A stretch of 20,351 bases of DNA from a plasmid. The translations under genes were made by a program, and so were the position numbers. Position 1 is the stretch's first letter. Each line of letters begins with the position of its first letter. The notes under the pieces were generated by a model that made no database searches, had not been told where the DNA came from, and saw nothing but the letters and a program-made list of their open reading frames with translations. The stretch lies in the sequence record NZ_CP090314.1. One strand, 5' to 3'. Below, piece by piece: positions 1,085-20,351 of this stretch.

Positions 1085-3238
1085 TTACACGTTTTTAATC
1101 TTTTCACCAGTCAATCCCATCGCATTAATTGCCACGATAATTGTCGACATCGCCATGACCGCAGCACCAACGGCTGGGTCTAGAATGATTCCAATAAATG
1201 ACAACACACCGGCAGCGAGTGGAATTGCGACAACATTGTAGCCTGCTCCCCACCAGAGATTTTGAACCATTTTCCGATTTGTGATTTTAGCCAAATCAAG
1301 AAAATGTAAAATATCGCTGGGTTCTGATTTAACCAACACAACATCAGCGGAATCAATGGCAACATCGGTTCCGGCGCCAATTGCAATTCCAATATCGGCC
1401 GCGGCAAGACTTGGTGCGTCATTTACGCCGTCACCAACCATGATGACGTGATTGCCCTTTGCTTGATAATCAGCAATAATCTTTTGCTTATCATCTGGTA
1501 ATAGGCCTGCATGGAATTCAGTCAATCCTAGTAAGTTAGCAACGTGTTCCGCGGCTTTTGGATTATCGCCAGTGAGCATTACGGGGGTAATTCCTCGCCT
1601 CTGAAGACCACTAATTAATTCCTTAGCTCCCGCTTTGATGGTGTCGCCTTCGGCAACCATTCCTTGAACTTGGGTGCCCTGCAATAGGAAGCTAACGGAA
1701 TTACCCTTAGCAGCCCATTTATCAGCAGCGGCCTCGTCAAACCTGATCCCTTGCTTCGTTAAATAGTTACCATTAACAATCATATAGTCAGTGCCATCAA
1801 CATTACCGGAAATACCAACGCCCGGAATATTTTGAGACTTTTCAGCCGCAACGACCTCAATGTTCTTCGCTTGGGCTTCAGTAATGATTGCTTGGGCCAG
1901 CGGATGAGTCGAATTAATTTCAAGGGCGGCCAGTCGGCTTAATAACGTTGTTTCGTCAATCCCATCATTTGGAATCAATGCATTCACTGTAAATTTACCT
2001 TCTGTTAACGTGCCAGTTTTATCCAAGAGAACGTGGCTAACATGTTGACTTGCTTCAATGGCTTGGCGATTTCGAACTAATAGCCCATTTTGAGCGCCGA
2101 TAGTAGTAGAACGAGAAACCACTAATGGAATCGCTAATCCTAATGCATGCGGGCAAGCAATCACGAAGACGGTCACCATGATCGTCATTGCAGTCGCCAA
2201 TCCCTGGGGTAACCAGGCAAAGAAAGCAATAATCCCAACACCAAGTGCCGCGTAAAATAGATACTTTGCAACTAAATCAGCTTTATCTTCTGCTTTAGAT
2301 TTAGCTTGCTGGGCATTTTGAACCATTTTCATTACTTGAGAAAGATAGCTGGAGTCACCAGTACCACTAATTTTAACCGTTAGCGTCCCGTTATTGTTGG
2401 TTGTACCACCAATGACCTTATCGCCAACGTTCTTGGTAACGGCAGCAGATTCACCGGTTACCAGTGCTTCATTCACGGTCGACTCCCCAGCCGTAATAAC
2501 ACCATCGGCTGGAATACTCTCACCTGAACGCACTTGGAAAGCTTGACCAACTTTTAAATCAGATACTGGCACTTCTTTTGTTTCACCATTATCTGTAACT
2601 AGATGGGCCGTCTTAGGCAACAGGGCCGCCATCTTTTGTAAGGCATTCCCAGCCCCCATCAATGCATTCATTTCAATCCAGTGTCCTAGAAGCATAATTA
2701 AAATCAGGGTTGCAAGTTCGAACGAAAAATCCATTATATGATTTGTCGGGTTCAAGAAGTTGTTGGCAATAAATGCGTACAAACTGTAGAAATACGAAAC
2801 GGAAATTCCAAGGGTTACTAGCGTCATCATTTCAGGAGATTTATTCTGAATTTCCGCTTTAGCCCCCTTTAAAAATGGCATTCCGCCATAAAAGTAAAGT
2901 GCTGTATCAAACAAAACGATGATAATGCCAACAATTAGCGGTGAACTGAAACTAAGGATGGAAACGTTTAAACCCATGATTGGTGCTAACAGTAAAACTG
3001 GAATCGCTAAGACAACGGAGACCCAAAATTTAACTTTCAAATTCCCCATATGCATCATTGAGCCACCGTGCATCATCATGTCGGCCCCAGCCATATCCAT
3101 ATCACCGTGATTCATGTTCATTTGGCTGTGATCCGTTTCGGTCATATCGTGATCCATATGACTCATATTTGATTCATTATTTTCCATATTCTTAGCACTC
3201 ATGTTTTTCATGTTCATATGGCCCTCTTTATTTGCCAT
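1085..3238 (-). CDS. copB: Copper-translocating P1B-3-type ATPase (CopB-like), 717 aa
   Basis: DKTGTLT phosphorylation site, GDGVNDAP hinge and a CPH transmembrane metal motif. His/Met-rich N-terminus (MSHMDHDM...MMMHGGSMMHMG). GGGGG RBS before the ATG at 3238. The longer track ORF starting at 3382 has no RBS. Confidence 0.9.
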   Translation of the reverse strand: MANKEGHMNMKNMSAKNMENNESNMSHMDHDMTETDHSQMNMNHGDMDMAGADMMMHGGSMMHMGNLKVKFWVSVVLAIPVLLLAPIMGLNVSILSFSSPLIVGIIIVLFDTALYFYGGMPFLKGAKAEIQNKSPEMMTLVTLGISVSYFYSLYAFIANNFLNPTNHIMDFSFELATLILIMLLGHWIEMNALMGAGNALQKMAALLPKTAHLVTDNGETKEVPVSDLKVGQAFQVRSGESIPADGVITAGESTVNEALVTGESAAVTKNVGDKVIGGTTNNNGTLTVKISGTGDSSYLSQVMKMVQNAQQAKSKAEDKADLVAKYLFYAALGVGIIAFFAWLPQGLATAMTIMVTVFVIACPHALGLAIPLVVSRSTTIGAQNGLLVRNRQAIEASQHVSHVLLDKTGTLTEGKFTVNALIPNDGIDETTLLSRLAALEINSTHPLAQAIITEAQAKNIEVVAAEKSQNIPGVGISGNVDGTDYMIVNGNYLTKQGIRFDEAAADKWAAKGNSVSFLLQGTQVQGMVAEGDTIKAGAKELISGLQRRGITPVMLTGDNPKAAEHVANLLGLTEFHAGLLPDDKQKIIADYQAKGNHVIMVGDGVNDAPSLAAADIGIAIGAGTDVAIDSADVVLVKSEPSDILHFLDLAKITNRKMVQNLWWGAGYNVVAIPLAAGVLSFIGIILDPAVGAAVMAMSTIIVAINAMGLTGEKIKNV

Positions 3239-3488
3239 GATTATCGACCCCCTAAAAATAAGTGTGCGTAGCAAAGCGGTTAGAAGCCGGAATATAAGTT
3301 CCTTGTGTGGAAATTCCCGGGCTCGGGATTTTCCCACCAGATTCTTATATTTAGGCTTCTGCTTTGCGGAGCACCATGCCACTATATGAATGAGAATTAC
3401 GACAAAAGTTCATAAGTTTCCGCCATCAGGAATCCCAGATTCTGGATTTTTGTGCAGCAATCCTAAAAGTAAACAGAACACCACAGTC

Positions 3489-3920
3489 TTAACACGTTTG
3501 ATCACCTGGCAAGCAGTTACACTGAACTTCTTCGGGCGCTGTTTTGGCCTTTTCAGCTAGAATCGCCTGTAAGTTCGCAATATCCGCCCGTGAGAGTTCC
3601 CTTGACTGAATAACGCCGGCAATTGTTGAACCAGCCCGCATCGCACACATATGGTCAAACAAATCATCTGCCGCTGCCGCCATTGATTCCTTCTCGCCAA
3701 CAACCGGCTTATACGTGAATGGTCGACTGCCGCCATGCTGCGCAACCGCCTGTTTTTGAATCAACCTGTGAAGTAGCGTTTTGGTTGTTGAAGCTGACCA
3801 GCCTTCTAATTCGTTCATAGCATCGATTAGTTCACGACTAGTCGCATGTCCCATTGTCCAAATTGCTCTCATAACCATCCATTCAGAATCGGTGATGGTT
3901 ACATTCTTTGGATCCTTCAA
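3489..3920 (-). CDS. copY: CopY/CopR-type copper-responsive repressor (BlaI/MecI-like winged helix), TTG start
   Basis: N-terminus ITDSEWMVMRAIW matches the CopY helix. C-terminal CNCLPGDQTC metal-binding Cys cluster. GGAGGA RBS 5 nt before the TTG. Cop boxes lie upstream. Confidence 0.8.
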   Translation of the reverse strand: MKDPKNVTITDSEWMVMRAIWTMGHATSRELIDAMNELEGWSASTTKTLLHRLIQKQAVAQHGGSRPFTYKPVVGEKESMAAAADDLFDHMCAMRAGSTIAGVIQSRELSRADIANLQAILAEKAKTAPEEVQCNCLPGDQTC

Positions 3921-3939
3921 TTGGCTTCCTCCATTAATT

Positions 3940-3995
3940 GAATTATAAGTTTACATTTGTAGTCTCTTAATGCTTATTAGTTTACAACTGTAGTC
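3940..3995 (-). promoter_or_regulatory. copY promoter/operator with two cop boxes, TACATTTGTA (3952-3961) and TACAACTGTA (3983-3992)
   Basis: Two TACAnnTGTA palindromes 31 bp apart, with a TATAAT (rc of 3942-3947) between box 1 and the gene. This is the canonical CopY operator motif. Confidence 0.75.
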
Positions 3996-4180
3996 ACAAT
4001 AATGCAACCTTTCTGCCAGAAAATACCATGACACTAAAAAAACGCCTAGATAATATTCCAGACGTGGTTTGATACGATATATTAAATTACGTTAGTTGCT
4101 AGTTTGTAACATTCCCATGACTTCTAAATTATGGGTCAGCATAATTACTTTCTCTTCTTAAGGGAAGCACTTAAGTCAAT

Positions 4181-4531
4181 TCACCTGTCAAGTTGAGCAA
4201 GTATTTTTTTCAGATCATCATCTTTTATAAAGTAGTACACCATTTTCCCCTTTTTTTGACGGTCTAAAATGTCAGCATCATACAGCATTCTTAAGTGATG
4301 AGAAGCGGTTGCAATACTACAGCCTAAAATATATGCAATATCACAAACACATAACGATTCCTGAGCGATTAAAGAGAAAATGATTTTTAACTTTTTCTCA
4401 TCTGAGATTTTAGACAATACATAAAAGTATTTCTTAATACGTGATTTACCCAAGAATTCCGAGACCTTCATTACTTTATCTGTCTCAACCAATGTCTGAT
4501 CACAAGTAATGTCAGCACTTTTGCTTTTCAT
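4181..4531 (-). CDS. cadX: ArsR/SmtB-family metalloregulator, CadX-like
   Basis: ELCVCD metal site and SHHLR recognition helix. Size and order (downstream of cadD) match cadDX operons. Confidence 0.8.
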   Translation of the reverse strand: MKSKSADITCDQTLVETDKVMKVSEFLGKSRIKKYFYVLSKISDEKKLKIIFSLIAQESLCVCDIAYILGCSIATASHHLRMLYDADILDRQKKGKMVYYFIKDDDLKKILAQLDR

Positions 4532-4547
4532 AGAATCACTCTGCCTA

Positions 4548-5164
4548 TTATTTAATTAAATTAATGAAAAGTTGAATTGATCCATTTTCGATCAAAACGG
4601 AACCACCAATAAAGATATAAACGATTCCTATAAACCAACGACTATATTTTTCAAGAACTGTACCTACAGTTGGAATACTAACCGACTTCTGGGCAATAAA
4701 AACTAATAAGAAAATCATTATCAAAAACACGATTAAAGTTATTAATAACTTTGGTAGTGCCAAACTAATAAAGTAAGGTACAAATAATCCAACATTATCA
4801 GCACCACAGCTCACAATAGTAATGAAAATCAAGGTTTTAATCAAATTATTTTGATTTGTATCTTTCAATTTTTCATTAGCCATTTTTTCACCGTCTGAAT
4901 CTCCCAAAATTAAAGCCTTTATTCCCAAAAAGACAGGAATTATTCCTAGAAAACCTAATAATCGTTTATCAGGAACGTAATGTAAAATGACAGCAAAGAA
5001 CAAACTAACTAATATCAAAAGCCCAGACCCAAGAAATTGGCCTATATAAATATCTCTAACACCCTTTTTATCTTTAACTTTCGCAAAAAAAGCATCAGAA
5101 TTATTAATAAGTCAATAGCAGTACTCCAGTAAGTCACCACACCAGCAATAATTGTTCCTAACAT
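4548..5164 (-). pseudogene. cadD: CadD-family cadmium resistance transporter, interrupted by a -1 frameshift in the A7/T7 homopolymer at 5085-5091
   Basis: The ORF-track 156-aa piece (4548-5018) is the CadD C-terminal part. An upstream frame from ATG 5164 (GGAGG RBS) encodes MLGTIIAGVVTYWSTAIDLLIILMLFF. Adding one T restores ...LFFAKVKDKKGVRDIYIGQFLGSGLLILVSLFFAVILHY in one frame. Confidence 0.75.
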
Positions 5165-5563: not shown

Positions 5564-5923
5564 ATGTTCGATTACACCACCGCAACCCGTGATCAGAAAG
5601 AAGAATTTTTGCAAGACAAAATCCTAATATGCTTACAAGCTACTAAACAACCAATGACGAATGCTCAGATTCGAGAATATCTGCTTAAGCATGTTGATGA
5701 GTTGCCAGCAAACGTAACTAAGCTAACCACTTCCAAAAAAGGCTCTGTATACTCTGATTTCCAGATCCGTGTAAATATGTCCATTACATCCTTGTACAAG
5801 GGCGGTCTGGTTGATCATCCAAAGCGAGGAGTAACCGAATTGACTCAACTCGGAAAAAGCATCAATCTTAATACTGGTCGTAAACATATGCATAAACTAA
5901 TTGTTGAGGGGTGGCAAAAATGA
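5564..5923 (+). CDS. Mrr_N-like winged-helix DNA-binding protein (119 aa)
   Basis: C-terminal segment TSKKGSVYSDFQIRVNMSITSLYKGGLVDHPKRGVTELTQLG resembles the Mrr N-terminal wH domain (..SGQLVYKNRAGWA...KRAGL..S..RGKW.LT..G). AAAGGAG RBS. Confidence 0.5.
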   Translation: MFDYTTATRDQKEEFLQDKILICLQATKQPMTNAQIREYLLKHVDELPANVTKLTTSKKGSVYSDFQIRVNMSITSLYKGGLVDHPKRGVTELTQLGKSINLNTGRKHMHKLIVEGWQK

Positions 5924-6507
5924 AACAACTCGTCCTACCCATCAAAGACAGCAACATTCTCCATGAAGTTCAAGACACGCTACTCAATAATTTCCGATAC
6001 GGTCGCCGTAACTATACTATCTTCCAAGTTGGCAAGGCAACCTTGCTCCGAGTGAGCGATGTGTTAGCTCTCAGACGAAATGAAATCTTTAATGATGATG
6101 GAACTATAAAGAAGAATGCTTATATTCGCGATAAAAAGACTGATAAACCCAACACACTGTACTTAAAGCCAGTAAATCAGGACTTAATTGATTACCTTCA
6201 GTGGTTAAATGAAAATAAGATTCAATCTGATTGGCTTTTCCCTTCCATTAAGCACCCTGACCGACACATTACCGAGAAGCAATTTTACAAGATCATGGCC
6301 AAAACAGGTGACCTACTTGGCATCAATTATCTAGGTACTCACACCATGAGAAAAACTGGCGCCTACCGTGTCTACACACAGACCAATTACAATATTGGCT
6401 TAGTGATGAGTTTGCTGAATCATTCCAGCGAAGCAATGACACTGAAATATTTGGGGCTTGATCAAGTTAGTCGAGAACAAATGCTAGATAAAGTGAGTTT
6501 CGACTAG
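5920..6507 (+). CDS. Minimal tyrosine site-specific recombinase (~195 aa), catalytic domain only
   Basis: Candidate R..K..HxxR..H..Y set: LRVSDV, DKKTDK, GTHTMRKTGAYRVY, LLNHSS, LKYLGLD. The ATG overlaps the upstream TGA (ATGA) with a GAGGGGTGG RBS. The GTG at 5911 is the alternative start. Confidence 0.75.
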   Translation: MKQLVLPIKDSNILHEVQDTLLNNFRYGRRNYTIFQVGKATLLRVSDVLALRRNEIFNDDGTIKKNAYIRDKKTDKPNTLYLKPVNQDLIDYLQWLNENKIQSDWLFPSIKHPDRHITEKQFYKIMAKTGDLLGINYLGTHTMRKTGAYRVYTQTNYNIGLVMSLLNHSSEAMTLKYLGLDQVSREQMLDKVSFD

Positions 6508-6724: not shown

Positions 6725-6988
6725 ATGGACTTTAATGACAACAATTTTTTAAACGAGATTAACCCCCTTGATCTTAACTCATCAATTCCTGCAACAAGAG
6801 ACCTTAAGGACTCAATTCATGCCTTGGCAATGTTAAATGGATGCACGATGCAAGAATATTTAGAACAACTCACCTCAACAGAAATTCATCACTATGATAT
6901 CCAGAAATTGTCCGATTACCGTAAACTCAAGTTTTATTTCGATGCGCGCTATCTTAAAAAGTATAATCTAAAATCGAGTAGGAGATAA
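6725..6988 (+). CDS. Hypothetical 87-aa protein (possible small DNA-binding/relaxosome accessory protein)
   Basis: AAAGGAG RBS. No confident domain. The C-terminal codons overlap the predicted 3' end of the antisense group II intron. Confidence 0.4.
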   Translation: MDFNDNNFLNEINPLDLNSSIPATRDLKDSIHALAMLNGCTMQEYLEQLTSTEIHHYDIQKLSDYRKLKFYFDARYLKKYNLKSSRR

Positions 6989-8882
6989 TTGATTAGTTCA
7001 ATTATCGACCTCTCACACCACCGTACGTACGGTTCCGTATACGGCGGTTCGACAACTTAATCACATTGAATTGACTGGAGCGTCTTGGACATATTCATAA
7101 GTCCGAGTTGTTCCAGTTTTCTATTAGTTAGAGAATAGCTCAAGGTCTTACTGTGTGCAGTTCGCCAGTAGCCCTTGCGGGTACTAGCGAAGACATATGC
7201 ATCACGCTGGGACAGCCCCAGCTTCTGTAAGTTAGTTACCTTAGTTTTAAGCTTCTTCCATTGCTTCCAGATATACTGTCTTATTCGGGCCCTCAACCAC
7301 TTGTCAAGGCGTTGAATAAAGTCAGTTAGTTTCCCAATTGAGTAGTACTGAAGCCATCCACGCATTTTTCGATGAATTTCTTCAAACATTCTTGTCAGGG
7401 ATATTCCACGATTACGTTTAGTTAATAACCTCAATGCTTTCTTTACTCGTTGTTGCGATTGTTTTGCTGGACGGGCGTAGGCTCCATTGTGGTCTACACC
7501 CAACGAAAAGCCAAGAAACTTTAACCGTAGCGGGCTACCGACTTTGGTTTTATCTGGGTTCACTTTAACTTTCAATCGCTTTTCAAGAAACTGGGTAATG
7601 CTTCGCATTACTCGTTCTCCGGCTCGTTGACTTTTAACATAAATGTTACAATCATCCGCATAGCGCACAAAGTGGTGACCACGTCTAGTCAACTCTTTAT
7701 CCAACTCATTTAGATAGATATTCGCCAGTATTGGTGACAATGGCCCTCCTTGTGGGGTTCCTTTTTCACTCTTAGCGAAAAGCCCATGGTCTAAGACTCC
7801 GCTAGTTAGAAACTTACGAATGAGCCTTAGTGTCCATGGGTCATCAATATATTGTTGAAGATACTTAATCATCAAGTCATGATTAACATTATCAAAATAG
7901 GCTTTTAGGTCTAAGTCGACAACTCTTCGATAACCTTGATTATAAAGATCTACTACTTTTGCAATAGCGTCGTGAGCCCCACGGTGAGGGCGGAAGCCAA
8001 AACTATTATCAGAGAAAACACGCTCAAAGATAGGTGTAAGAATTTGGGCCACAGCTTGTTGAACCATTCGGTCCACCACTGTTGGTATTCCGAGTTTTCT
8101 TACTCCACCATTAGGCTTCGGAATTTCTACCCGTTTGACTGGTGCTGGTTTATACTTGCCCTCACGCAAACTAGCGATCAATTCCGTCTTATTTTCTCTG
8201 AGATATGGCAGAAGGTCATTGACTGTCATATCGTCAATGCCTGCTGCCCCTTTATTTCTCTTAACTCGCAAATAAGCCTGATTAAGGTTATTGCGGTCCA
8301 AGACTAAGTCTTGGATAGTGACACTCATACCTTTACCTTCACCATAATCGGTACTACGCGCCCTTGTGTACTTTCGGTTTTCCAAACCTATCCTCGACAA
8401 GCGGTCAGCTTGTTGTTCTGTTTTCTGCGATTGTCGCACCTGATTACACCTCCGATATAAGTTACAAGTTATTGTCGTTCAGTCCTTCATCTGATTACTC
8501 AGACTACTATGACCTCGGCTGACTTCTGGCTTACTCAACGCTACATCACTGCACCGCTTGTTTCTGTGGAAATTAAACTTATTCCTCTTGTCGGAAACGT
8601 GTAGGCCAGATCTCCCCGGGTAAGGATATTAACTTTCGTACCATGTCACCGGTAGCTTTACTGAAAGTAACTTCGAGTAGTGTTGGACTTTAACTTGTCA
8701 TGCAGTCTTATCCAGTTAGTTCCAGCCTTATAGCTACTTCTTGTTCATCGGTGCAGTACTTTGCCTTAGACTTCCTTCAGATTCCACCTCGCAGTGGACA
8801 CCCTTGTCCTCAGCTCATGGTTCCGACTACTACGGCCCATAGCGGACTCTCACCGCCTAGCTAATACCCATGCCGGGCGCAC
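6980..8882 (-). mobile_element. Group II intron, bacterial class C-like (~1.9 kb). The 3' boundary is approximate, within ±20 nt.
   Basis: 5' end GUGCGCCCGGCAUGGG at 8882, immediately after a terminator hairpin. Only ~554 nt lie between the 5' end and the IEP start (short domains I-III). A domain V-like 32-nt hairpin at 7017-7048 (ACCGCCGUAU ACGG AA CCGU AC GUACGGUGGU) carries a CGC triad and an AC bulge. A DVI-like stem lies at ~6980-7010. Confidence 0.7.
7057..8328 (-). CDS. Group II intron-encoded reverse transcriptase/maturase, ~423 aa, no endonuclease domain
   Basis: RT motifs including YADD (RYADDCNIYV), a maturase/X domain (RGWLQYY) and a short C-terminus. Start at MSVTIQD with a GAAGGTAAAGG RBS. 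The 5' extension in the track lacks an RBS. Confidence 0.85.
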   Translation of the reverse strand: MSVTIQDLVLDRNNLNQAYLRVKRNKGAAGIDDMTVNDLLPYLRENKTELIASLREGKYKPAPVKRVEIPKPNGGVRKLGIPTVVDRMVQQAVAQILTPIFERVFSDNSFGFRPHRGAHDAIAKVVDLYNQGYRRVVDLDLKAYFDNVNHDLMIKYLQQYIDDPWTLRLIRKFLTSGVLDHGLFAKSEKGTPQGGPLSPILANIYLNELDKELTRRGHHFVRYADDCNIYVKSQRAGERVMRSITQFLEKRLKVKVNPDKTKVGSPLRLKFLGFSLGVDHNGAYARPAKQSQQRVKKALRLLTKRNRGISLTRMFEEIHRKMRGWLQYYSIGKLTDFIQRLDKWLRARIRQYIWKQWKKLKTKVTNLQKLGLSQRDAYVFASTRKGYWRTAHSKTLSYSLTNRKLEQLGLMNMSKTLQSIQCD

Positions 8883-10140: not shown

Positions 10141-11396
10141 AATGAAGTTAGCCACCTAATTGGTGGTAAATGCAAAAACGCCATTCGGCGTGACATCAGG
10201 TATCATATTAAGTGAATCAAAACAATATGAAAGGATGTCCGTCAAATGACGCACTTAAATGATACCATGCCCACTAACCTTTTGGCCACTCATCGCAAAT
10301 ATGCACACCTTACTAAAGAAGAGCGAGTGATGATTGCGACTTTAAAGTCGCAAGGACTTTCCAATCGCGCAATCGGTCGTCAATTAGGAGTGAACCACCA
10401 AACCATTAATAATGAGCTTAAACGTGGTACAGTTCGCCAAATTCGTCGTCAAAAATTCAATGGTAAGACTTACGATTACCCTTATCACATCTACAGTTAT
10501 GAAGCTGGTCAGAATATTTATCTTAAATGCCACCAACGGTCCGGTCGTCCTCGTTTATATTACCGCTCAAAGCGTTTTTTACAATTGGCCGACCAATTAA
10601 TGCTTGGTGAATTTGATGAGCATCGTTACTCTCCTCAAGCGGCTATTTATAAGGCACGTGATTTGATGAGTGATGATTCACTGATCCCTAAGTCTGTTGT
10701 GACTTTGTATCAGTGGATTAATGATGGTGTATTCCGTACGTCTAACTTGGACCTTTTTGAGAAAACTAAACGTAAACACCATCAATCTCATCCACAAGCC
10801 AAAAAGTGCTTAGGACCTAACATTGCTCAACGTCCACAGGTTGCGGACCAACGGTCCGAAATTGGTCATTGGGAACTAGACACTATTCAAGGTCATAAAG
10901 ATGGCAAGGATAGCGTTGTTCTAGTAATGACTGATCGTTTTTCACGGGTTAATATTACGAGAAAAATTGCTGGTAAAACTGCGCATGCAGTAAATCAGTT
11001 CTTTATAAATTTACGCCAGAAAATGGGCACAGATGCTTACTATCGCATCTTTAAGACAATAACCTCTGACAACGGTTCAGAATTTAGTGAGTTAACACAA
11101 GTTCACGATCATGTTTTCTATGCTGATCCGTATTCCCCTTGGGAACGTGGATCCAATGAAATCAATAATCGTTTTCTCCGGAAGGAGATTACTAAGGGCC
11201 AAGCTGTTAATGATTATAGTAGTGCCCAGATTATAGCGACCAATAACTGGATGAATCACTATCCACGAGCCATATTTAATGGACGTTCTGCAATGGATGT
11301 TTACTGTAAAGCATTCTATCAAGAGACGTCACGTTCTCATCAACCAATAACTAATTGGTCAGTGCTATTTATTTCAGCTTAGTGGCTAACTTATTC
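10140..11396 (+). mobile_element. IS30-family insertion sequence (~1.26 kb)
   Basis: Terminal inverted repeats gaatgaAGTTAGCCACc (10140-) and gGTGGCTAACTtattc (-11396). A single transposase ORF fills the element. Confidence 0.75.
10246..11382 (+). CDS. IS30-family DDE transposase (378 aa)
   Basis: N-terminal HTH (LSNRAIGRQLGVNHQTI) and a DDE core (HWELDTI...VLVMTDRFSR...ITSDNGSEF) typical of IS30. Confidence 0.85.
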   Translation: MTHLNDTMPTNLLATHRKYAHLTKEERVMIATLKSQGLSNRAIGRQLGVNHQTINNELKRGTVRQIRRQKFNGKTYDYPYHIYSYEAGQNIYLKCHQRSGRPRLYYRSKRFLQLADQLMLGEFDEHRYSPQAAIYKARDLMSDDSLIPKSVVTLYQWINDGVFRTSNLDLFEKTKRKHHQSHPQAKKCLGPNIAQRPQVADQRSEIGHWELDTIQGHKDGKDSVVLVMTDRFSRVNITRKIAGKTAHAVNQFFINLRQKMGTDAYYRIFKTITSDNGSEFSELTQVHDHVFYADPYSPWERGSNEINNRFLRKEITKGQAVNDYSSAQIIATNNWMNHYPRAIFNGRSAMDVYCKAFYQETSRSHQPITNWSVLFISA

Positions 11397-11400
11397 TTGA

Positions 11401-12138
11401 AATTTAGAAAAAAAAGGGAAAGGAAATTACTTCAACAAAAATACAGGTGAAAAAATAACAAAAGTTAAAAACTCAAATTTAAAAATTCAAAATCGTCAAT
11501 CACTAATTAGATCCTACGTCAACTTACGATACACAATAGAGAAATATGTTACAGGTTCTATCTATGACGAAATGTACACTCTTACTTATGAAAAAGCTCA
11601 AACATCATTTAAAGACCTGAGCCACGATTTTGTTACCTTCATGAAACGTTTCAAACGCTATGTTAAAAAGAACTATCCTAAAGTTAACTTATCATGGATA
11701 CGAATAAACGAACCTCATAAAGACACAATAAACGGCAAGCCAAAATGGCATATTCATCTAATCGTCATAGGACTTCCTTTTATGAAGCATCACATTCTTG
11801 AAAAATTATGGGGGCATGGAATAGTCACAATCACTTCATACTACAAATGCAATATTCACAAAGTAGCTAATTATTTTACTGGCTTCATCAACAAAAACGA
11901 TTCTGATCCAGAAAGCAAAAAAGGACGACTAAAATACTATACATCTGGCACTGACCTATTTAGCTTGTCTCGAGGATTACACGTCCCAAAATGGATACAA
12001 GGTACAGACCAAGAAATTAGAAAAAAACATCCTGGCAAAATTATAAATGAAACTACTATTGAAATTAGAGATACAAACGATAACAGTCTATTTAATCGAT
12101 TTGCTTACCGCGACATCGAATCAAACAAAACAAAATAA
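11401..12138 (+). pseudogene. rep: C-terminal ~245-codon part of a Rep_1 (pC194/pUB110-type) rolling-circle replication initiator. It is open from the IS30 right end. The ORF track gives 11572-12138.
   Basis: Motif I-like MYTLTY (FLTLT), HUH motif HIHLIVIG, and a Tyr motif VANYFTGFINKNDSD (cf. AKYxxKDSD). The frame is open upstream to 11401 with no start codon. Confidence 0.55.
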
Positions 12139-13360: not shown

Positions 13361-14245
13361 ATGCCAACTGTACTATACGGAAACATGAAGGGTGGCGTAG
13401 GCAAAACTACTAATAGTGTTATGACCGCATACCAATTAGCAAGAAAGGGCTATAAAACATTAGTTTGCGATTTAGATCCACAAGCAAATGCTACCCAGTT
13501 ACTACGAAGAACTTATGGATTGCAGCATGGCACTGATTTAAAAATTGAAAAAACAATGATGGTAGCTTTAACCGAAGAAAATATTGAACCTGCTATTGTT
13601 AATATTATGGATAATCTGTATCTTCTTCCTTCGTCAGAAGACTTTAAAAATTATCCTGATTTCTTAGAAATGAAATTTATGCCTGATAAAGAAAAAATTC
13701 TAGCCGGTAATAGCACAACCTTGCAAAGCGAAATGGCTAAAGTAAAAGAAAAACGAATTGCTTATTTTTCGAAACAACTGGCTAAAGTACATGACCAATA
13801 TGATTTCATCATTATCGATGTACCACCAACGCTTTCAATTTTTACAGATTCAGCAATATATGCTACTAATTTTGTGATCATTGTTTTACAAACCCAACAG
13901 CGTTCTCTAGATGGAGCTGAAACATTTTTTGAATACCTGCAGGAAATGTACAATAATTATGCCAATATTGACTTTGATATTATTGGAGTTTTAGCAGTCC
14001 TACTTAAAAATAATGCTGGTTTAGATAGTCAAATTTTAAAAGATGCTCGCGTTGATTTTGGCGACGATATGCTATTTAATCAAATTATTAGACACATGGA
14101 AAGATTGAAACGATACGATAGAACAGGGATTGCTGAAAAAGGATTAACCAAGTATGACATGCATGACACACGTCTACACTATATTTACACAAAGTTAACA
14201 GATGAAATTATTGCTCGATTAAAGGATAAAGGAGCACTTAACTGA
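13361..14245 (+). CDS. parA: ParA/Soj-family partition ATPase (294 aa)
   Basis: Deviant Walker A motif KGGVGKTT. DLDPQ and IIIDVPP motifs. GGGAGG RBS. Confidence 0.9.
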   Translation: MPTVLYGNMKGGVGKTTNSVMTAYQLARKGYKTLVCDLDPQANATQLLRRTYGLQHGTDLKIEKTMMVALTEENIEPAIVNIMDNLYLLPSSEDFKNYPDFLEMKFMPDKEKILAGNSTTLQSEMAKVKEKRIAYFSKQLAKVHDQYDFIIIDVPPTLSIFTDSAIYATNFVIIVLQTQQRSLDGAETFFEYLQEMYNNYANIDFDIIGVLAVLLKNNAGLDSQILKDARVDFGDDMLFNQIIRHMERLKRYDRTGIAEKGLTKYDMHDTRLHYIYTKLTDEIIARLKDKGALN

Positions 14246-14619
14246 TGGCTAAATATCAATTTGATAAGGGCACGAAAAGAAGGTCAAAACCAAGGCCCAA
14301 GCCAATAGACAAGACCGATATTTCAAAGCCAAAAATAACTTATAATCCTCTTACTGTAACCGACAGAGTTGAAAATGATCTGCAGCATAAAAAAAGATCA
14401 GTAGGAAGGCCAAAAACAGGTCGAAAATCATACAAAACAGTTCGTTTATTAACAAGTACTGTGTTGAAGATTAATGCGTTGGAAAATGCTCTTGGAATTA
14501 AGACACAAGATGCTACTGTAGATCAAGCCGTTGACCGAGTAATTAATTCATTAACTAATGATGAAATGCGAGCTTATAAGCTGTGGCTTGAAATGTTTGA
14601 AAAAAAAGAAAAAGAATAG
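14245..14619 (+). CDS. Small basic ParB-like centromere-binding partner protein (124 aa)
   Basis: ATGA overlap with parA. Lys/Arg/Pro-rich N-terminus (KRRSKPRPKP...GRPKTGRK). Position is typical of a type Ib partition adaptor. Confidence 0.55.
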   Translation: MAKYQFDKGTKRRSKPRPKPIDKTDISKPKITYNPLTVTDRVENDLQHKKRSVGRPKTGRKSYKTVRLLTSTVLKINALENALGIKTQDATVDQAVDRVINSLTNDEMRAYKLWLEMFEKKEKE

Positions 14620-14642
14620 GTAAGATCATAAAATTTTGAAAA

Positions 14643-14682
14643 AATAGGTACTACTAAATTTAAAATTTAGTAGTACCTATTT
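14643..14682. terminator. Bidirectional terminator, a 19-bp perfect palindrome (aataggtactactaaattt|aaatttagtagtacctatt) between convergent genes
   Basis: Perfect inverted repeat flanked by an A-run and a T-run. Confidence 0.7.
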
Positions 14683-14687
14683 TTTGA

Positions 14688-15281
14688 TTACCGTTTCTGA
14701 ATTCGTTTTTTCAATCGATAAAGCGTTGACCTAGATAGGCCTGTTGCCTGTTGAGTAGTTCTATAGTCGCTCTTCATAAGCAGATTGTAAATCTGGTAAT
14801 CTTGTTGTGTAATCTCTCGTTTATTGCTTTTATCCCTATGCAAATCAATCTGATGTGTCATTTGACACATCTTTTTTCTATTAGAGGAACGTTGCATCAT
14901 AGTAACCATATCTGCTCGACAGAGCATCTTAGCTACATAATACGGTTCACGACTGTTACTCATACCCATTTCTAGCTCGTCGCTAAAAATTGTTATCTGA
15001 AGGTCTTCAATCTCGTCGAGTAAGCAACATAATTCACGCACGTTAGACGTCATATTTGATACGTCCATTACATCTATCATATCGCCAGGTTTCACAACCA
15101 TAAGTAATTTTTGCAGTTGAAATCGTGCCTGACACACCCCAGTGAATGTGTCAATAAAGTAAGCATCATAATCCACATTGGTTTGTTTAAGAAAATCAAT
15201 TTGACACGCGATTGAACCTTTATCATTAATGTCATTATTAGTGGTTCCAGCCACATAAGCATACATTGACATATGTTTCAT
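14688..15281 (-). CDS. Serine-recombinase (resolvase/invertase) homologue with all catalytic residues substituted, plus a C-terminal HTH_7 domain. Putative non-catalytic DNA-binding regulator.
   Basis: Fold-level match to Hin/Tn3 resolvase: YAYVAGTTNN for YxRVSTxxQ, VKPGDMIDVMDVSNMTSNVRELCCLLDEI for GDTLVVxKLDRLGRSxxxLxxLxxEL, and HTH GLSRSTLYRLKKR. The positions corresponding to Hin R8, S10, D65, R66 and R69 are Y, A, S, N and T. Confidence 0.6.
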   Translation of the reverse strand: MKHMSMYAYVAGTTNNDINDKGSIACQIDFLKQTNVDYDAYFIDTFTGVCQARFQLQKLLMVVKPGDMIDVMDVSNMTSNVRELCCLLDEIEDLQITIFSDELEMGMSNSREPYYVAKMLCRADMVTMMQRSSNRKKMCQMTHQIDLHRDKSNKREITQQDYQIYNLLMKSDYRTTQQATGLSRSTLYRLKKRIQKR

Positions 15282-15369
15282 ATCCTTTCTATTTTATTTT
15301 TTGTATTAACAGTCTAAATAAAAAAATTTGAAACATGGTATGAAACAAAATAACTACATCAGTTCGCAT

Positions 15370-15392
15370 AACATAAATTGGTATAATAAGAA
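15370..15392 (+). promoter_or_regulatory. Candidate mod promoter: extended -10 TGgTATAAT (15379-15387) with a TTCGCA -35-like hexamer upstream
   Basis: Sequence pattern ~35 nt upstream of the mod ATG. Confidence 0.3.
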
Positions 15393-15420
15393 GAAATAAT
15401 AATTACTAGAAAAGGTAGAT

Positions 15421-17430
15421 ATGATGCAAATAGATACTAGATTAATGGAGCAGGTTAAAGATGTTCTTCAGCAATTCGGTACTAAGTATATAACCAAAGA
15501 TGGTTCTCTAAAACGTAATGCCGTTATTAGCGACCTTGATAAATATGATAAAGACTTAATGGTAGCATTGTTGGCCAACAATCTTATTAAAGATGAATAT
15601 ACTGAACAAATAGCTGATACAACAGTATTCAAATTAAATCACTTTATTGAAATGTTTGAATATCAAGAGTTTTGGGGTAATAGTTTTACCAAATACGCCA
15701 ACCGAATTGGCCTTACCAGTGATGATAAATTCATTAGTGACTCAGACGATGTTGTATTAGATTTCCCCTATAAAGATACTGTTCTAAAAGCAGGTATGAC
15801 TAAAGATGATGTTGATAAAGAAGTCGGGGCTGATGAACCTTTTTTGAACGAAACATTAGCTCATTCTGAAATTAGTGAGTTATTTGAACCAAAAGTATTA
15901 GTTAATGCAAAACTATACGATACAGAAGGCGAACACAAAGCTACCAATTTTGATGATAATGATAATTTAGTAATTAAGGGCAATAATTTAATCGCTCTAC
16001 ATAGTATTGCCAAAAAGTACGCCGGAAAAATTAAACTCATTTATTTGGATCCACCCTATAACACAGGATCTGATTCCTTTAAATATAATGATCGATTTAG
16101 TCATGCTACTTGGCTCACGTTTATGAAGAGTCGATTGGAAATAGCAAAAACGCTAATGTCTGATAACGGGGTCATTGCTATCCAACTGGATGATTCTGAG
16201 GGACCATATCTAAAGGTACTGACAGACTCAATATTTGGTCGTGACAATGAATTATTCACGCAATATGTGTTAGTCCGATATGCTAATAAGACATTGAAAT
16301 CAGATATGGATTATCATAAACAAATAGAACAAATCCATTACTATAAAAAAAATTCTAATGCTGAGGTAAAACCCAACAAGGACAAAGTTCCATATGATTA
16401 TTCAAAATTCTGTTACGAAGTTAAAACGACTGGGAAACCTTCTTCATCAATTATGCTTGGCGATAAACAAGTTGATATTTTCACTAAAGACCAGGTTGAG
16501 TTTAAGAAAACCTCCGGTAATCCGGAAGGTCTTAAAGAAATATGGGCTTCTGGAACAATCTTAAATGGTAATTCCTCTGGAAGATTTTTTAGAGATTATT
16601 TAAGTGGCCGTTATAAAAAAGATGGTTATGGTGTGGTCTATAAAGTTTATGATATAGGCGATGATGGTAATGACTATAGATTCTTTACAGGTCCAAAGAA
16701 AGCAGGAGCTACTAAAGGAAAGTATTATCAAGGAGTTCCCCTAGATGTTAAAAACGGTAAAACTAGTCAAAAGTTATTGCCTATACCAGGCTTCATTGAT
16801 ATGGCAGGTTCATTTGGAAACGATCGTCTTGAAGGAGGCGTCGAATTAAGAAATGGAAAAAAGCCTGAGAAATTATTGAAAAATATTATTAAATATTTTA
16901 GTAATAAAAATGATTATGTTATGGACTTTTTCGCTGGTAGTGGCTCAACGTTAGCTACAGCAATGAAAATGAGTCGAAAATTTATAGCAATCGAACAAAT
17001 TAATGAACAAATCATAAAAATCAATAAACGATTAAATAATGTTATTCATGGTGATCAAACTGGTATTTCCAAGGAAGTTAATTGGCAAGGTGGCGGTTCA
17101 TTTGTCTACACCGAACTTATGAAAAAGAACCAGGGATTTCTTTATGACCTTCAGAAGGCAACTACCATTGACGAGCTTAATGCAGTTTATGACCGAATGA
17201 AACAGGGTGCTGATCTAGATTTTCGTGTCGACTTAAATAAATTTGAAAATGATTCTGAACGTGCTTCTCTACCATTTGAAGATCAGAAAAAGCTGTTAAT
17301 CAAGCTACTTGATAAGAACCAACTTTACTATAACGAAGCCAATATTGATGATGCAGACGTCCGTGACCTGATCTCGGATAGTGATTATCGATTCAATAAG
17401 AGCTTCTACAACGGGAAGGAGTCAAAGTAA
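15421..17430 (+). CDS. mod: Type III restriction-modification DNA methyltransferase (Mod, beta-class N6A/N4C MTase)
   Basis: Motif IV LIYLDPPYNTGSD precedes motif I VMDFFAGSGST (beta-class order). Central variable region. ATGG overlap with the downstream res. Confidence 0.85.
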   Translation: MMQIDTRLMEQVKDVLQQFGTKYITKDGSLKRNAVISDLDKYDKDLMVALLANNLIKDEYTEQIADTTVFKLNHFIEMFEYQEFWGNSFTKYANRIGLTSDDKFISDSDDVVLDFPYKDTVLKAGMTKDDVDKEVGADEPFLNETLAHSEISELFEPKVLVNAKLYDTEGEHKATNFDDNDNLVIKGNNLIALHSIAKKYAGKIKLIYLDPPYNTGSDSFKYNDRFSHATWLTFMKSRLEIAKTLMSDNGVIAIQLDDSEGPYLKVLTDSIFGRDNELFTQYVLVRYANKTLKSDMDYHKQIEQIHYYKKNSNAEVKPNKDKVPYDYSKFCYEVKTTGKPSSSIMLGDKQVDIFTKDQVEFKKTSGNPEGLKEIWASGTILNGNSSGRFFRDYLSGRYKKDGYGVVYKVYDIGDDGNDYRFFTGPKKAGATKGKYYQGVPLDVKNGKTSQKLLPIPGFIDMAGSFGNDRLEGGVELRNGKKPEKLLKNIIKYFSNKNDYVMDFFAGSGSTLATAMKMSRKFIAIEQINEQIIKINKRLNNVIHGDQTGISKEVNWQGGGSFVYTELMKKNQGFLYDLQKATTIDELNAVYDRMKQGADLDFRVDLNKFENDSERASLPFEDQKKLLIKLLDKNQLYYNEANIDDADVRDLISDSDYRFNKSFYNGKESK

Positions 17431-20063
17431 TGGCTCGTAAAAAAACAATACCCGAAGAAAAAATTGATCTCCAATTACTAAATGCTCTTAACAGCACCAG
17501 CCTTTTTTCACTCAAATCATCCTTAGAGGATAATCCCCTTTACATTACTAATAATCTAAAACACAAACTCCGTAATTACCAAATGGATGCTGTCCATCAC
17601 CTCGATGCAGTACTCAACATGAAGGATGCTGACCAACGTAATCAGTTGATGTTTTACATGGCCACAGGATCTGGAAAGACCGATATTATGGCCGCAATTA
17701 TCCTGTATATGTTTCGTGCCTGGGGTTATCAATGCTTCTTGTTTACCACTAATACAACTGCTGTTGTCGACAAGACTATTGATAACTTAGTAAATAGTGC
17801 TTCTGCTAAGTACCTTTACAACAATCCATTAGTTATTGATGGCGATCATGTTACGATTAAAAAAGTCGACCGATATCCAGTAAATCTTGAAAAGGATACA
17901 ATATATATCAAACTTGCTGGCATTCAACAATTATCAAATGACTATTACGCCCCCAGAGAAAATGGAATTACCAAGGATTCACTGGCAAGACATAAATTAG
18001 TCCTGCTTGCCGACGAAGCACACCACTTTAATGTTTCTACTCGCAGTAAGAAAGCTAATCGGGAGGGACTTAGTTGGGAGCATTTGCTTGATGAGATCAG
18101 GCAATTAAATCATGAAAATAAACAACTTGAATTTACTGCGACTATCGATCTTCATAATCCTGACATTTACCACAAGTATCAAAATAAGATCATTGCACAA
18201 TATGATCTTAGCCACTTCATTAATGATGGGTTTTCCAAAAAGGTCTACCGGCTTCAAGCAAATAATAGTGATGAAAATAAGATGCTCAATGCTGTACTCT
18301 TATCACAATATCGGAAGCGTATTGCTCAAAACATGAGTATTCCCGACTTTAAGCCTGTAATCTTGTTCAAATCGAATACAATCGCTGAATCAAGGGCTAT
18401 CAACGAAACCTTTTTGACAATGATTGACAACCTATCAGCAGAATCGTTGCAACAATTTATACAGAATCAAAACCGTTCAACGCAAAGTGAAGCACTCAGT
18501 CTTGCTTACAAGTATTGGCTAAATCAAGATTTTGGTTCTACAGTAACCGAGTTAAAACGCGATTTTAGCAAGTTTACAACGATTAACGCGAATGACTCTG
18601 GAAGTAAGAACATTCTTGATGACGAATCAGTTTCAAGAAGGCTCAATTCTTTGGAAAGTCCTGACAACCCGATTCGCTCTGTCTTCGCCGTTGCTAAGTT
18701 GAGTGAAGGTTGGGACGTTTTGAACCTCTTTGACATCGTCCGGATTGGCGAAAAAAATATCAAGCCTAAAGATACAAATGCTGAAGCCCAGCTTATTGGA
18801 CGTGGTGCCAGATACTATCCATTCGTTTATCACGGAAAGAAGTCATATACGAGAAGATTTGATGACCGTAAACCAGAAATTCAGCTTTTGGAGCGTTTGT
18901 ACTACCACACTATTAACGATCCACAATATCTGGAAAATCTTAGAAAATCACTAGATGCAATTGATCTACCTGTTAATGAAGATACTCAATACAAGGTGTA
19001 CACCGCTAAAGTAAAGAATTCGTTTAAGAAGACCAAAGCATATAAGCATGGGAATATTTACTATAATAAGGTCATTGACGTTCCTGAATCGCATTACGAT
19101 TCTATTCAGAAGTACGGCTTCGATCCTGAAACAACTGGACCAATTGATATGGTTGATGCTGTTTCTGAGCGAAGATACGATACTGGTGCGGATAAGAACG
19201 ATACCACCTCTACAACACTTGAAGTTGCTGCTAGATTTAGCAATCCTCAAGATAAGGCACTTATACGTACAGCCGTGTCCTTCAATAACTTCTACCGTTT
19301 TGACTCCCTTAAAAAATACTGTCCTACTTTAACAAGCATGCGAGAATTCTTAACTAGCAATGAATGGTTAGGGAACGCCACCATAAGAGTTAAGGTAGCA
19401 ACCGGTTCTCCTGCTCTAACTAACGAACAACGATTAACAGCAGTTAAAAAGTATTTAGTCCGTGTGCAAACAGCAATCTCTAATAACTTCAAACGCTCTA
19501 TTGGTACTAACGAGTTTATGCCTATCGCCGTTAATGAAGTTATTCAAGATTATCAAAAGCGTGTTGGTGATCAATTCGGCAAGAGTGCCTTAATAGGCCC
19601 TGATTCGATGCAGGGCAAAGACTGGTATGTCTATGATTATGCGATTGTAGATACCCTTGAAAAGCACTTTATTGACCATATCAATAGTATTATGCCTGAA
19701 CTAACACATCAGTACGGGCAAGCTTATCTACTACGTATTGATGAACGTACAACTGATTTCAAGTTACATGATTTTGGTGAGAATATTTTCCATTACGAAG
19801 GATATATGCCTGACTTTATTCTTTACCTTGAGAATGAGAACTTTATCTATCAGATATTCCTTGAACCTAAAGGGACACCTTATATAGAAAGGGATAAATG
19901 GAAGGAAAAACTTCTGGAACGAATTAATCCTGACAATATTAAAGTCCTAGGTGAAGACGAAAAAGTTAAGATCTATGGCCTGAAATTCTATGTTGAAGAT
20001 GATGGCAAAGAAGATACCCACGGTTTATTCCAAGAGATGCGCGACAAGAATATCTTGCAGTAA
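17430..20063 (+). CDS. res: Type III restriction enzyme Res subunit (SF2 helicase-like ATPase plus endonuclease), 877 aa
   Basis: Helicase motif I MATGSGKTD, motif II LLADEAHHF (DEAH) and later motifs (QLIGRGAR). Size and coupling to mod fit this call. Confidence 0.85.
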   Translation: MARKKTIPEEKIDLQLLNALNSTSLFSLKSSLEDNPLYITNNLKHKLRNYQMDAVHHLDAVLNMKDADQRNQLMFYMATGSGKTDIMAAIILYMFRAWGYQCFLFTTNTTAVVDKTIDNLVNSASAKYLYNNPLVIDGDHVTIKKVDRYPVNLEKDTIYIKLAGIQQLSNDYYAPRENGITKDSLARHKLVLLADEAHHFNVSTRSKKANREGLSWEHLLDEIRQLNHENKQLEFTATIDLHNPDIYHKYQNKIIAQYDLSHFINDGFSKKVYRLQANNSDENKMLNAVLLSQYRKRIAQNMSIPDFKPVILFKSNTIAESRAINETFLTMIDNLSAESLQQFIQNQNRSTQSEALSLAYKYWLNQDFGSTVTELKRDFSKFTTINANDSGSKNILDDESVSRRLNSLESPDNPIRSVFAVAKLSEGWDVLNLFDIVRIGEKNIKPKDTNAEAQLIGRGARYYPFVYHGKKSYTRRFDDRKPEIQLLERLYYHTINDPQYLENLRKSLDAIDLPVNEDTQYKVYTAKVKNSFKKTKAYKHGNIYYNKVIDVPESHYDSIQKYGFDPETTGPIDMVDAVSERRYDTGADKNDTTSTTLEVAARFSNPQDKALIRTAVSFNNFYRFDSLKKYCPTLTSMREFLTSNEWLGNATIRVKVATGSPALTNEQRLTAVKKYLVRVQTAISNNFKRSIGTNEFMPIAVNEVIQDYQKRVGDQFGKSALIGPDSMQGKDWYVYDYAIVDTLEKHFIDHINSIMPELTHQYGQAYLLRIDERTTDFKLHDFGENIFHYEGYMPDFILYLENENFIYQIFLEPKGTPYIERDKWKEKLLERINPDNIKVLGEDEKVKIYGLKFYVEDDGKEDTHGLFQEMRDKNILQ

Positions 20064-20143
20064 CCTCATGAGTGGTAAACTATTCGATTCATGATATAAT
20101 GTTTATAGAGATTAAGTCGTTATGAGGTTCATAGCGCAACACA

Positions 20144-20185
20144 AAAGCCCCCAGCAAGGTCCGAAGATGCTGAGGGCTTTTATTG
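20144..20185 (+). terminator. Rho-independent terminator after res (agcccccagc ... gctgagggct + T-run)
   Basis: GC-rich imperfect hairpin followed by ttttatt, 80 nt after the res stop. Confidence 0.55.
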
Positions 20186-20351
20186 TGGGCTTGTGCCGTT
20201 CGATTACTCGTTAATGGTGTCGGTTGTTAAGCCACCAGCTGAACCATACTACGATGAGCGAACTAACGAGCGAGATTAAGTCGTTTAAAAGGTCCATAGC
20301 CACCACCCCCTCTCTATCACGACAAGGGGACGAACGACAATATTAAGTATA

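Follow-up and report, generated by a model that had tools for sequence, protein, structure and literature searches.

Why would a plasmid keep a recombinase that has apparently lost the means to recombine? The question is raised by a gene on NZ_CP090314.1, a plasmid sequence of 20,351 nucleotides that was analysed in full and is called the window below. The window is 100% identical across the queried region to pLR584 (NC_015701.1) of Limosilactobacillus reuteri SD2112, and the gene lies between a partition (par) operon and a Type III restriction-modification (RM) operon (Table 1). A first-pass annotation made from the letters of the DNA had described its product as a dead resolvase homologue re-used as a DNA-binding controller of the RM system. 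Our results show a maintained pseudo-enzyme, and the explanation that we favour on balance is that the protein is a DNA-binding-only derivative of a plasmid resolvase, acting on a head-to-tail operator of its own, most likely autoregulatory and part of the plasmid backbone.

Homology, catalytic residues and selection

The reading frame is unbroken and, as first noticed, preceded by a ribosome binding site. The spacing of this Shine-Dalgarno sequence (0 to the first ATG, 10 nt to M4) makes a start at M4, position 15272, and a product of 194 aa probable, and PGAP, which names the gene 'recombinase family protein', also starts it at the fourth codon; residues are numbered here on the 197-residue form. 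The protein consists of an N-terminal resolvase-like domain (residues ~6-100), an E helix (~112-150) and a C-terminal helix-turn-helix (HTH, ~159-196). Its homology to small serine recombinases, proposed earlier for the whole length, is secure by sequence comparison. The Pfam Resolvase model matches residues 21-104 with 27.8 bits against a gathering cutoff of 23.3, and hhalign aligned a profile of 22 family members with one of 25 active resolvases at 99.7% probability (E 8.7e-26) over residues 4-197, running through the HTH to residue 197. Pfam HTH models matched the C-terminus below threshold only. The best PDB sequence matches are gamma-delta resolvase chains, and gamma-delta and Tn3 resolvases are the only meaningful ones; a scan of NCBIfam gave only a far sub-threshold match to Mpi invertase, and PADLOC had no model matching the protein.

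An AlphaFold model built from close homologues alone reached a pLDDT of 52.8 and was not used in the fold search, and one built from an alignment with distant relatives added reached 80. The latter has the resolvase-like order of elements (beta1, alphaA, beta2, alphaB, beta3, alphaD, beta4, long E helix, three-helix HTH), with the three HTH helices modelled over residues 159-196 at a pLDDT of ~90, and the top 40 Foldseek matches to it in the PDB were all serine recombinases (catalytic-domain TM 0.7-0.8).

Six residues are crucial in Tn3 resolvase, namely Y6, R8, S10, D36, R68 and R71 (Olorunniji and Stark, PMC2794168). According to residue equivalences on which MAFFT and hhalign were concordant (gamma-delta numbering), four of the six are replaced in the pLR584 protein, R8 by A11, S10 by T13, which is followed by a five-residue insertion, R68 by N76 and R71 by S79. 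V9 (G12) and D67 (S75) are replaced too, while Y6, D36 and R45 are kept as Y9, D44 and R53, which are invariant in the family. The first-pass annotation was thus right about R8, S10, D67, R68 and R71, and went too far in stating that every catalytic residue is replaced. Its N-terminal register (R8 to Y, S10 to A) was off by two positions, and the Thr that it gave for the third arginine is T78, whereas R71 pairs with S79. In Tn3 resolvase, cleavage relative to normal falls below 0.0001 in R8A and S10A and to 0.0014 in R68A, with DNA binding retained (PMC2794168). Judged from these replacements, loss of catalysis in the pLR584 protein is close to certain.

The motifs YAY[IV][AD]GTTN and DVSN..SN are present in all 120 homologue clusters listed (70-100% identity), none of which keeps the catalytic Ser and Arg, and the replacements are therefore no local artefact. 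A HMMER search over 1.84 billion cluster representatives yielded one full-length member of the family and three distant full-length relatives (P0124, P0127 and P0128); these also lack R8, S10, D67, R68 and R71, and their nucleophile position, Thr in the family itself, is occupied by Tyr or Phe. In the tabulated alignment, which comprises the best-scoring 50%-identity clusters, the canonical R8/S10/R68/R71 are retained by nearly all remaining full-length representatives, with a few sporadic exceptions that lack the full set (for example P0155, P0186 and P0192), some of them without the serine.

Selection on the family is strong. The pairwise ratio of nonsynonymous to synonymous substitution rates (dN/dS) is 0.08-0.19 at a dS of 0.8-2.2, and by part of the protein it amounts to 0.06-0.20 in the former catalytic domain, 0.05-0.20 in the HTH and 0.15-0.32 in the E-helix/linker. 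At least two synonymous codons are used in 74 of the 89 invariant degenerate codon columns, T13, S75, N76, S79 and HTH residues among them, and A11, S75, N76 and S79 are invariant, each with at least two synonymous codons. Since the replaced positions stay constant despite synonymous codon change, it is the replacement residues themselves that are selected. The HTH sequence TGLSRSTLYRLKKRIQ is the same in 119 of the 120 clusters and the frame is intact in every one. The gene is a maintained pseudo-enzyme under purifying selection, in agreement with the initial view of a maintained protein rather than a decayed gene, and its family is so far confined to Limosilactobacillus plasmids.

Upstream repeats and the closest known systems

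When the regions upstream of the gene are aligned, homology between contexts starts abruptly at two head-to-tail TGTTTCA(T/A) half-sites, of which half-site 1 provides the first base pairs common to all contexts. The half-sites follow each other with a period of 12 bp (13 bp in two variants), and the 4-5-base spacer varies while they do not. Closer to the gene, ATTTAGA(C/A)T is invariant and is followed by a variable part that contains an 8-bp indel, and then by AAAAT and the Shine-Dalgarno sequence; between the latter and the M4 start codon is an inverted half-site copy (ATGAAACA). The pair of half-sites, the only conserved non-coding element, belongs to the gene's own upstream block of ~75 bp. 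The window has 7 matches to the degenerate motif ATGTKTCA (expectation 2.4), a count reached by 0 of 100 shuffles, and 5 of the 7 copies are in or just upstream of the dead resolvase gene.

With TAGACT of the invariant block taken as a -10 element, the half-sites would extend from ~-42 to -23 in the gene's own candidate promoter. Another match in the window, TTTAGA-16-TAAAAT, was rejected, as it needs an 8-bp insertion absent from most relatives, and a consensus promoter scan found no promoter conserved family-wide. The likely mod promoter and its Type ISP counterpart (TGaTATAAT) both lie in context-specific DNA, at different distances from the half-sites.

Two in-gene sequences resemble the operator. 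A copy of ATGTGTCA at 15146 was discarded as a DNA-level site since its synonymous positions vary, so that coding explains it. A perfect palindrome spans residues ~137-143 and falls in an island of conserved residues within the region where the protein varies most; ATGTGTCAYTTGAAACAT is retained in relatives, and in L. caccae the perfect form ATGTTTCATTTGAAACAT occurs. It may be a DNA site or a coding coincidence, and is not of site I dimensions.

We read the TGTTTCA repeats as the putative binding site of the protein because they accompany the gene and no other element, because the invariance of the HTH parallels that of the half-sites, because the closest active relative combines a nearly identical HTH with the same motif at its promoter, and because their arrangement is that of site II of Sin resolvase.

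At its site II, Sin forms a head-to-tail, dimer-bound and catalytically inactive regulatory complex that is able to synapse two DNAs (Mouw et al., PMC2428073). The dead protein shares with Sin (PDB 2R0Q) the small serine-recombinase architecture, and its operator shares with site II of the Sin recombination site two head-to-tail half-sites starting TGT, ~12-13 bp apart and just upstream of the gene, a geometry that the family pattern TGTTTCAT-N4-TGTTTCA(A/T) reproduces. Unlike Sin, it lacks the catalytic Ser and Arg, a site I, any sign of an HU/IHF spacer and the insertions found in Sin, to which it is distantly related (16% identity in Foldseek), and its recombination role has probably been lost altogether. 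No crossover site of the inverted-repeat, site I kind was found near the gene, where only the head-to-tail half-sites are conserved and the sequence upstream differs by context; beyond the repeats the context alignments contain no conserved sequence, hence neither a Sin-like site I nor an HU/IHF spacer was seen. As far as can be read from the DNA, the protein has a 'site II' and no 'site I'.

A Sin orthologue (E 1e-46 to PDB 2R0Q) occurs on sister plasmids, with a res recombination site made of an inverted-repeat site I with a GTAC centre and head-to-tail TGTAACA repeats of 13-bp period just before the ATG, its site II reading TGTAACAAT-N4-TGTAACAA. These res sites lie at 340-485 in locus L026, 4770-4870 in L038, 1440-1545 in L017 and 130-225 in L045, and on Type ISP plasmids the RM gene stands between the active Sin-type gene and the dead resolvase gene. 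Two of the distant dead relatives, P0124 (L. rudii, L017 3472-4071) and P0128 (metagenome, L045 1706-2266), are encoded downstream of a Sin-like gene, at a distance of 0.9-1.3 kb; the Sin-like gene is intact in L. rudii and split in L045. Their position suggests that the dead lineage began as a paralogue next to an active resolvase gene. Both have AG[YF] at the active-site loop and neither has par or RM neighbours.

In Tn3 and gamma-delta, TnpR represses tnpA and tnpR. These resolvases are the best PDB sequence and structure matches of the dead protein, and here too the gene adjoins a divergent intergenic region in which (putative) binding sites overlap promoters. However, TnpR is active and has three inverted-repeat subsites, whereas the dead protein would keep binding and regulation only, and its repeats are direct. 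The closest active relative in the plasmid collection is the enterococcal resolvase WP_000170424 (28% identity over the full length, more than 500 plasmids). It has a nearly identical HTH (SRSTLF/YRIKK) and carries the TGTTTCAT motif as a head-to-tail pair at its promoter: in E. faecium and E. mundtii, TGTTTCATAAACTTATGTCA immediately follows TTGACA-17-TATAAT, the promoter of the fic-resolvase operon. It keeps, however, the full catalytic set (YARVST, LDRFAR) and has no RM or par neighbour.

In SGI1, cargo inserted in res immediately upstream of the resolvase gene was accompanied by loss of the resolution function (PMC12217951). The pLR584 gene resembles it in having cargo directly upstream and resolution lost; the SGI1 protein, though, is active and its site merely split, whereas the pLR584 protein has lost its chemistry yet is strongly selected. 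By fold and descent the latter is a small serine recombinase, one that has neither the nucleophile nor the arginines of that family and near which no crossover site was found, and its mode of action would be most like that of the regulatory half of the Sin/TnpR system.

Table 1. Features of the dead resolvase locus, with positions counted from the first nucleotide of the window.
Feature	Position	Strand	Remarks
parA 13361-14245, parB (DUF5388) 14245-14619	13361-14619	+	convergent with dead resolvase gene
Hairpin, perfect 22-bp stem, bidirectional terminator	14639-14685		-25 kcal/mol, z = -7.4
Catalytically disabled small serine recombinase homologue	14688-15281	-	intact ORF, 197 aa from first ATG
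Palindrome in coding region, GATGTGTCA-AA-TGACACATC	14852-14871		two inverted operator-like half-sites
Inverted half-site, ATGTTTCA on + strand	15273-15280	+	conserved at nucleotide level
Shine-Dalgarno GAAAGGA	15283-15289	-	abuts first ATG
Candidate -10 TAGACT (TAGAAT in one relative)	15311-15316	-	invariant; read from sequence
Half-site 2 TGTTTCAA, head-to-tail with half-site 1	15328-15335	-	from upstream alignment
Half-site 1 TGTTTCAT, distal to gene	15340-15347	-	invariant in 12 distinct upstream sequences and further loci
Likely mod promoter, extended -10 TGgTATAAT	15379-15387	+	read from sequence; context-specific DNA, ~32 bp beyond half-site 1
Type III RM operon: mod 15421-17430, res 17430-20063	15421-20063	+	slot varies across relatives

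Partition genes, the RM slot and the rest of the plasmid

Context was surveyed at about 50 loci, drawn from plasmids, genomes and metagenome assemblies, and the neighbours were typed with reference proteins in tblastn. Only 2 loci came from species-representative genomes and 6 from JGI metagenomes, so that contexts were sampled mainly via exact-protein look-ups. Downstream, a convergent parA-parB pair is present in every locus, the only exceptions being interrupted by an insertion sequence (IS) or at contig ends, and in the window the terminator hairpin sits between parB and the dead resolvase gene. Three par types occur, ParA-294 with ParB-DUF5388, a ~271-aa ParA with a DUF5388 ParB, and ParA-259 with a 78-aa ParB.

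Upstream, an RM gene or RM remnant lies directly beside the gene in every context sampled, and the RM systems are of three unrelated types. A divergent Type III mod-res operon is found in the window, L003, L019-L025, L040-L042 and L046-L050, and a truncated mod in L. caccae (L007); in the window the gap to mod is 139 bp, close to the ~140 bp first reported. A Type ISP single-polypeptide enzyme, also divergent, occupies the place in L006, L026-L037 and L051, with remnants in L044 and in the intergenic sequence of an 8-kb L. oris plasmid, there followed by IS1216. The third arrangement is a co-directional Type II system (L008-L016) in which a C protein and a C5 methylase read towards the dead resolvase gene, and an NgoFVII-like nuclease, a Z1 protein and Vsr are divergent from them. 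A terminator-like hairpin separates the methylase gene from the half-sites in this context, the R promoter is ~1.5 kb off, and the C protein is a bona fide one of the Xre type. Almost all RM x par combinations occur, about ten, with the general module order RM slot, dead resolvase, par, RHH, Rep. The synteny with Type III mod-res proposed at the outset is therefore only partly borne out: an RM neighbourhood is conserved, but the same slot also takes Type ISP or Type II systems and parAB is equally invariant, which makes the Type III pairing one instance of a wider arrangement.

All three slot systems (L008 1987-6878, L026 1180-5901, window 15421-20063) are nucleoside triphosphate (NTP)-dependent with an SF2-helicase-like motor, namely Type III Res, Type ISP, or Z1 beside an NgoFVII-like PLD nuclease with C5 methylase and Vsr; we take Z1 to be the motor partner of the NgoFVII/CglI-like nuclease in the Type II contexts. 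No Type I or simple Type II system was found in the slot among the contexts sampled. The presence of three unrelated RM systems at one junction could be due to a capture mechanism, to a functional link, or to selection favouring a cluster of stability functions in which partition is combined with post-segregational killing. Some strains have two copies of the RM/dead-resolvase/par module: NZ_CP128359.1 (L003) gave two matches on one 45-kb plasmid, and GCA_046883135.1 encodes an identical dead-resolvase protein on two contigs (L047, L048). These duplications hint at cointegrates or coexisting sister plasmids.

Sliding-window identity revealed blocks of 98-100% that switch partner along the gene and its flanks. 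Site-specific exchange at the operator or at the internal palindrome was considered and rejected, as the block ends spread over the whole gene and cluster at neither, and their dispersion points to general homologous recombination instead. The operator, gene and terminator form a fixed backbone module of ~0.8 kb in this Limosilactobacillus plasmid family, and because of its conservation across plasmids it acts as a homologous-recombination hinge for the reshuffling of RM and par modules.

The window exceeds the 19,059-bp circular NC_015701.1 by 1,292 bases, an excess consistent with an IS30-family transposase open reading frame (10246-11382) that has no counterpart among the annotated features of NC_015701. 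The HUH-type Rep frame that follows (11572-12138) is shortened, with 188 aa compared with 286 aa annotated in the reference. The extra transposase and the short Rep frame make the window look like pLR584 with an IS inserted in or beside rep, and we infer that it represents the entire circle, position 20351 being joined to position 1. A metal-resistance cluster at 1085-5018 is ordinary plasmid cargo (copper P-type ATPase with a His/Met-rich N-terminus, CopY repressor, ArsR/SmtB regulator, CadD transporter). A complete group II intron lies on the minus strand at 6973-8798, with RNA-model matches for D1-D4 and D5/6 at 8625-8798, 8482-8560 and 6973-7049 and a reverse transcriptase/maturase frame at 7057-8439; its 3' end overlaps the end of an 87-aa frame at 6725-6988. 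An overlapping gene pair at 5564-6507 encodes a 119-aa Mrr_N winged-helix protein and a tyrosine recombinase of 195-198 aa, recurs in L003, L008, L019, L046 and L051, often at the far end of the RM region, and may be a real multimer-resolution or cassette-exchange system. The ~250 noncoding bp after res (20087-20338) are 98% identical to an unannotated part of the L. fermentum plasmid NC_004566.1 and 87% identical to another L. reuteri plasmid without RM genes; they may mark the border between modules or else represent a small element, mobile or origin-like.

Possible roles of the protein

The favoured explanation, a DNA-binding-only resolvase derivative on an operator of its own, builds on the homology, the loss of catalytic residues, the purifying selection, the conserved operator, the synteny and the mosaicism, to all of which we give the grade of established. 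In this explanation, the invariant HTH would recognise the TGTTTCA half-sites, and a dimer formed via the retained N-domain and E helix would occupy the two head-to-tail copies, 12 bp apart, upstream of the gene, much as Sin resolvase does at its non-catalytic regulatory site II. With the half-sites apparently over the -35 region of the gene's own promoter, the bound protein would autoregulate the gene, and the inverted copy at the start codon may contribute. The regulatory or architectural half, an accessory-type site with its binding protein, would have survived, while the crossover site and the chemistry were lost; the role of the protein would be autoregulatory or architectural. The protein most likely descends from the plasmid's multimer-resolution resolvase. 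If the small tyrosine recombinase now handles multimer resolution, serine chemistry would have become dispensable, although this is speculation.

Several points weigh against it. Binding to the repeats and autoregulation are deduced from sequence patterns, and the promoter candidate likewise comes from reading the sequence, with an ambiguous consensus scan. The alignment behind the AlphaFold model included active resolvases, which biases the model towards the resolvase fold. No comparable repeats were found upstream of the distant dead relatives P0124 and P0128 (L017, L045), and the operator model is accordingly confined to the Limosilactobacillus family. In addition, a backbone autoregulator alone explains neither the constant RM neighbour nor the benefit that maintains the protein.

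That constant neighbour, across three RM types and about ten RM x par combinations, speaks for a protein that mainly regulates the adjacent RM genes from the shared intergenic region, as an analogue of C proteins, for example in timing on cell entry. The placement of half-site 1 agrees with such a role, as it is immediately next to the predicted -35 of the RM promoter in Type ISP contexts and ~12 bp upstream of the predicted RM -35 in Type III contexts. However, the operator is part of the gene's own conserved block and of no RM module, and its geometry relative to the RM promoter varies by context. In the Type II arrangement the methylase is co-directional and followed by the terminator-like hairpin, the R promoter is remote and a C protein is already present; moreover, no PADLOC model fits the protein. 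We consider this role rather unlikely. C proteins are small Xre-type HTH proteins of about 80-100 aa that are encoded in the RM operon and act on palindromic C-boxes. The dead protein resembles them in being of a DNA-binding type, encoded beside RM genes consistently in all contexts examined, but it has 194-197 aa, a resolvase fold, a direct-repeat operator of its own and three unrelated RM partners, one with its own C protein, and its gene is outside the RM operon, divergent from or downstream of the RM genes. The earlier idea was of a recombinase fold re-used as a DNA-binding RM controller. That the protein binds DNA is most plausible; C-protein-like control is possible in divergent arrangements and does not extend to all contexts, given the variable geometry and, for one RM partner, a separate C protein and an intervening terminator. 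It is similarly doubtful that the protein governs the slot as a pseudo-recombinase, by controlling whichever NTP-dependent RM system is docked there or by marking a site of RM cassette capture or exchange.

A different use of site-II-like repeats would be non-catalytic pairing, in which the bound protein synapses two copies, either assisting an active recombinase in trans (Sin-like or the small tyrosine integrase) or bringing plasmids together for copy control or partition. DNA is indeed synapsed without catalysis by Sin dimers at site II (PMC2428073), on several sister plasmids a Sin orthologue with full res borders the Type ISP gene on its far side, and distant dead relatives are encoded just downstream of Sin-like genes; the strong constraint on the N-domain and the constant position beside par would also fit. 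Nevertheless, no active serine recombinase is encoded near the gene on the window plasmid or in most relatives with Type III or Type II systems, no site I was found beside the repeats, and breakpoints dispersed over the whole gene show no trace of site-specific exchange, which leaves pairing improbable.

It is very improbable that the protein is still an active recombinase whose remodelled active site uses Thr13 as nucleophile. Such activity would fit the invariance of Thr13 within the family and the retention of equivalents of Y6, D36 and R45, but the three essential arginine positions are Ala, Asn and Ser, members of the distant clade have Tyr or Phe in place of the nucleophile, no crossover-type inverted repeat is nearby, and R8A or R68A alone already abolishes cleavage by Tn3 resolvase (PMC2794168). 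A decaying relic without function, for which the lost catalytic residues and the cargo standing where the crossover site would be, as in the res-disrupted SGI1 (PMC12217951), might speak, is already contradicted by the selection analysis, with intact frames in 120 of 120 clusters, a dN/dS of ~0.1 at saturated dS and replaced positions conserved through synonymous change.

In searches of the literature on inactive or domesticated serine recombinases and on pLR plasmids we found no description of this protein or of such a maintained dead family. Its public annotation combines the name 'recombinase family protein' with the Gene Ontology term DNA recombination, whereas the present evidence indicates that the protein cannot recombine. 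It would represent a clear natural case in which only the regulatory, DNA-binding half of a recombinase is left, a state foreshadowed mechanistically by Sin site II and by repression through TnpR. If the link to RM is functional, the recombinase fold would further have given rise to a new class of RM regulators or organisers. The gene belongs to a compact backbone module beside which three RM systems swap on Limosilactobacillus plasmids, including those of the probiotic strain SD2112/ATCC 55730; in gut lactobacilli this bears on the stability of plasmids, on transformability and on gene flow.

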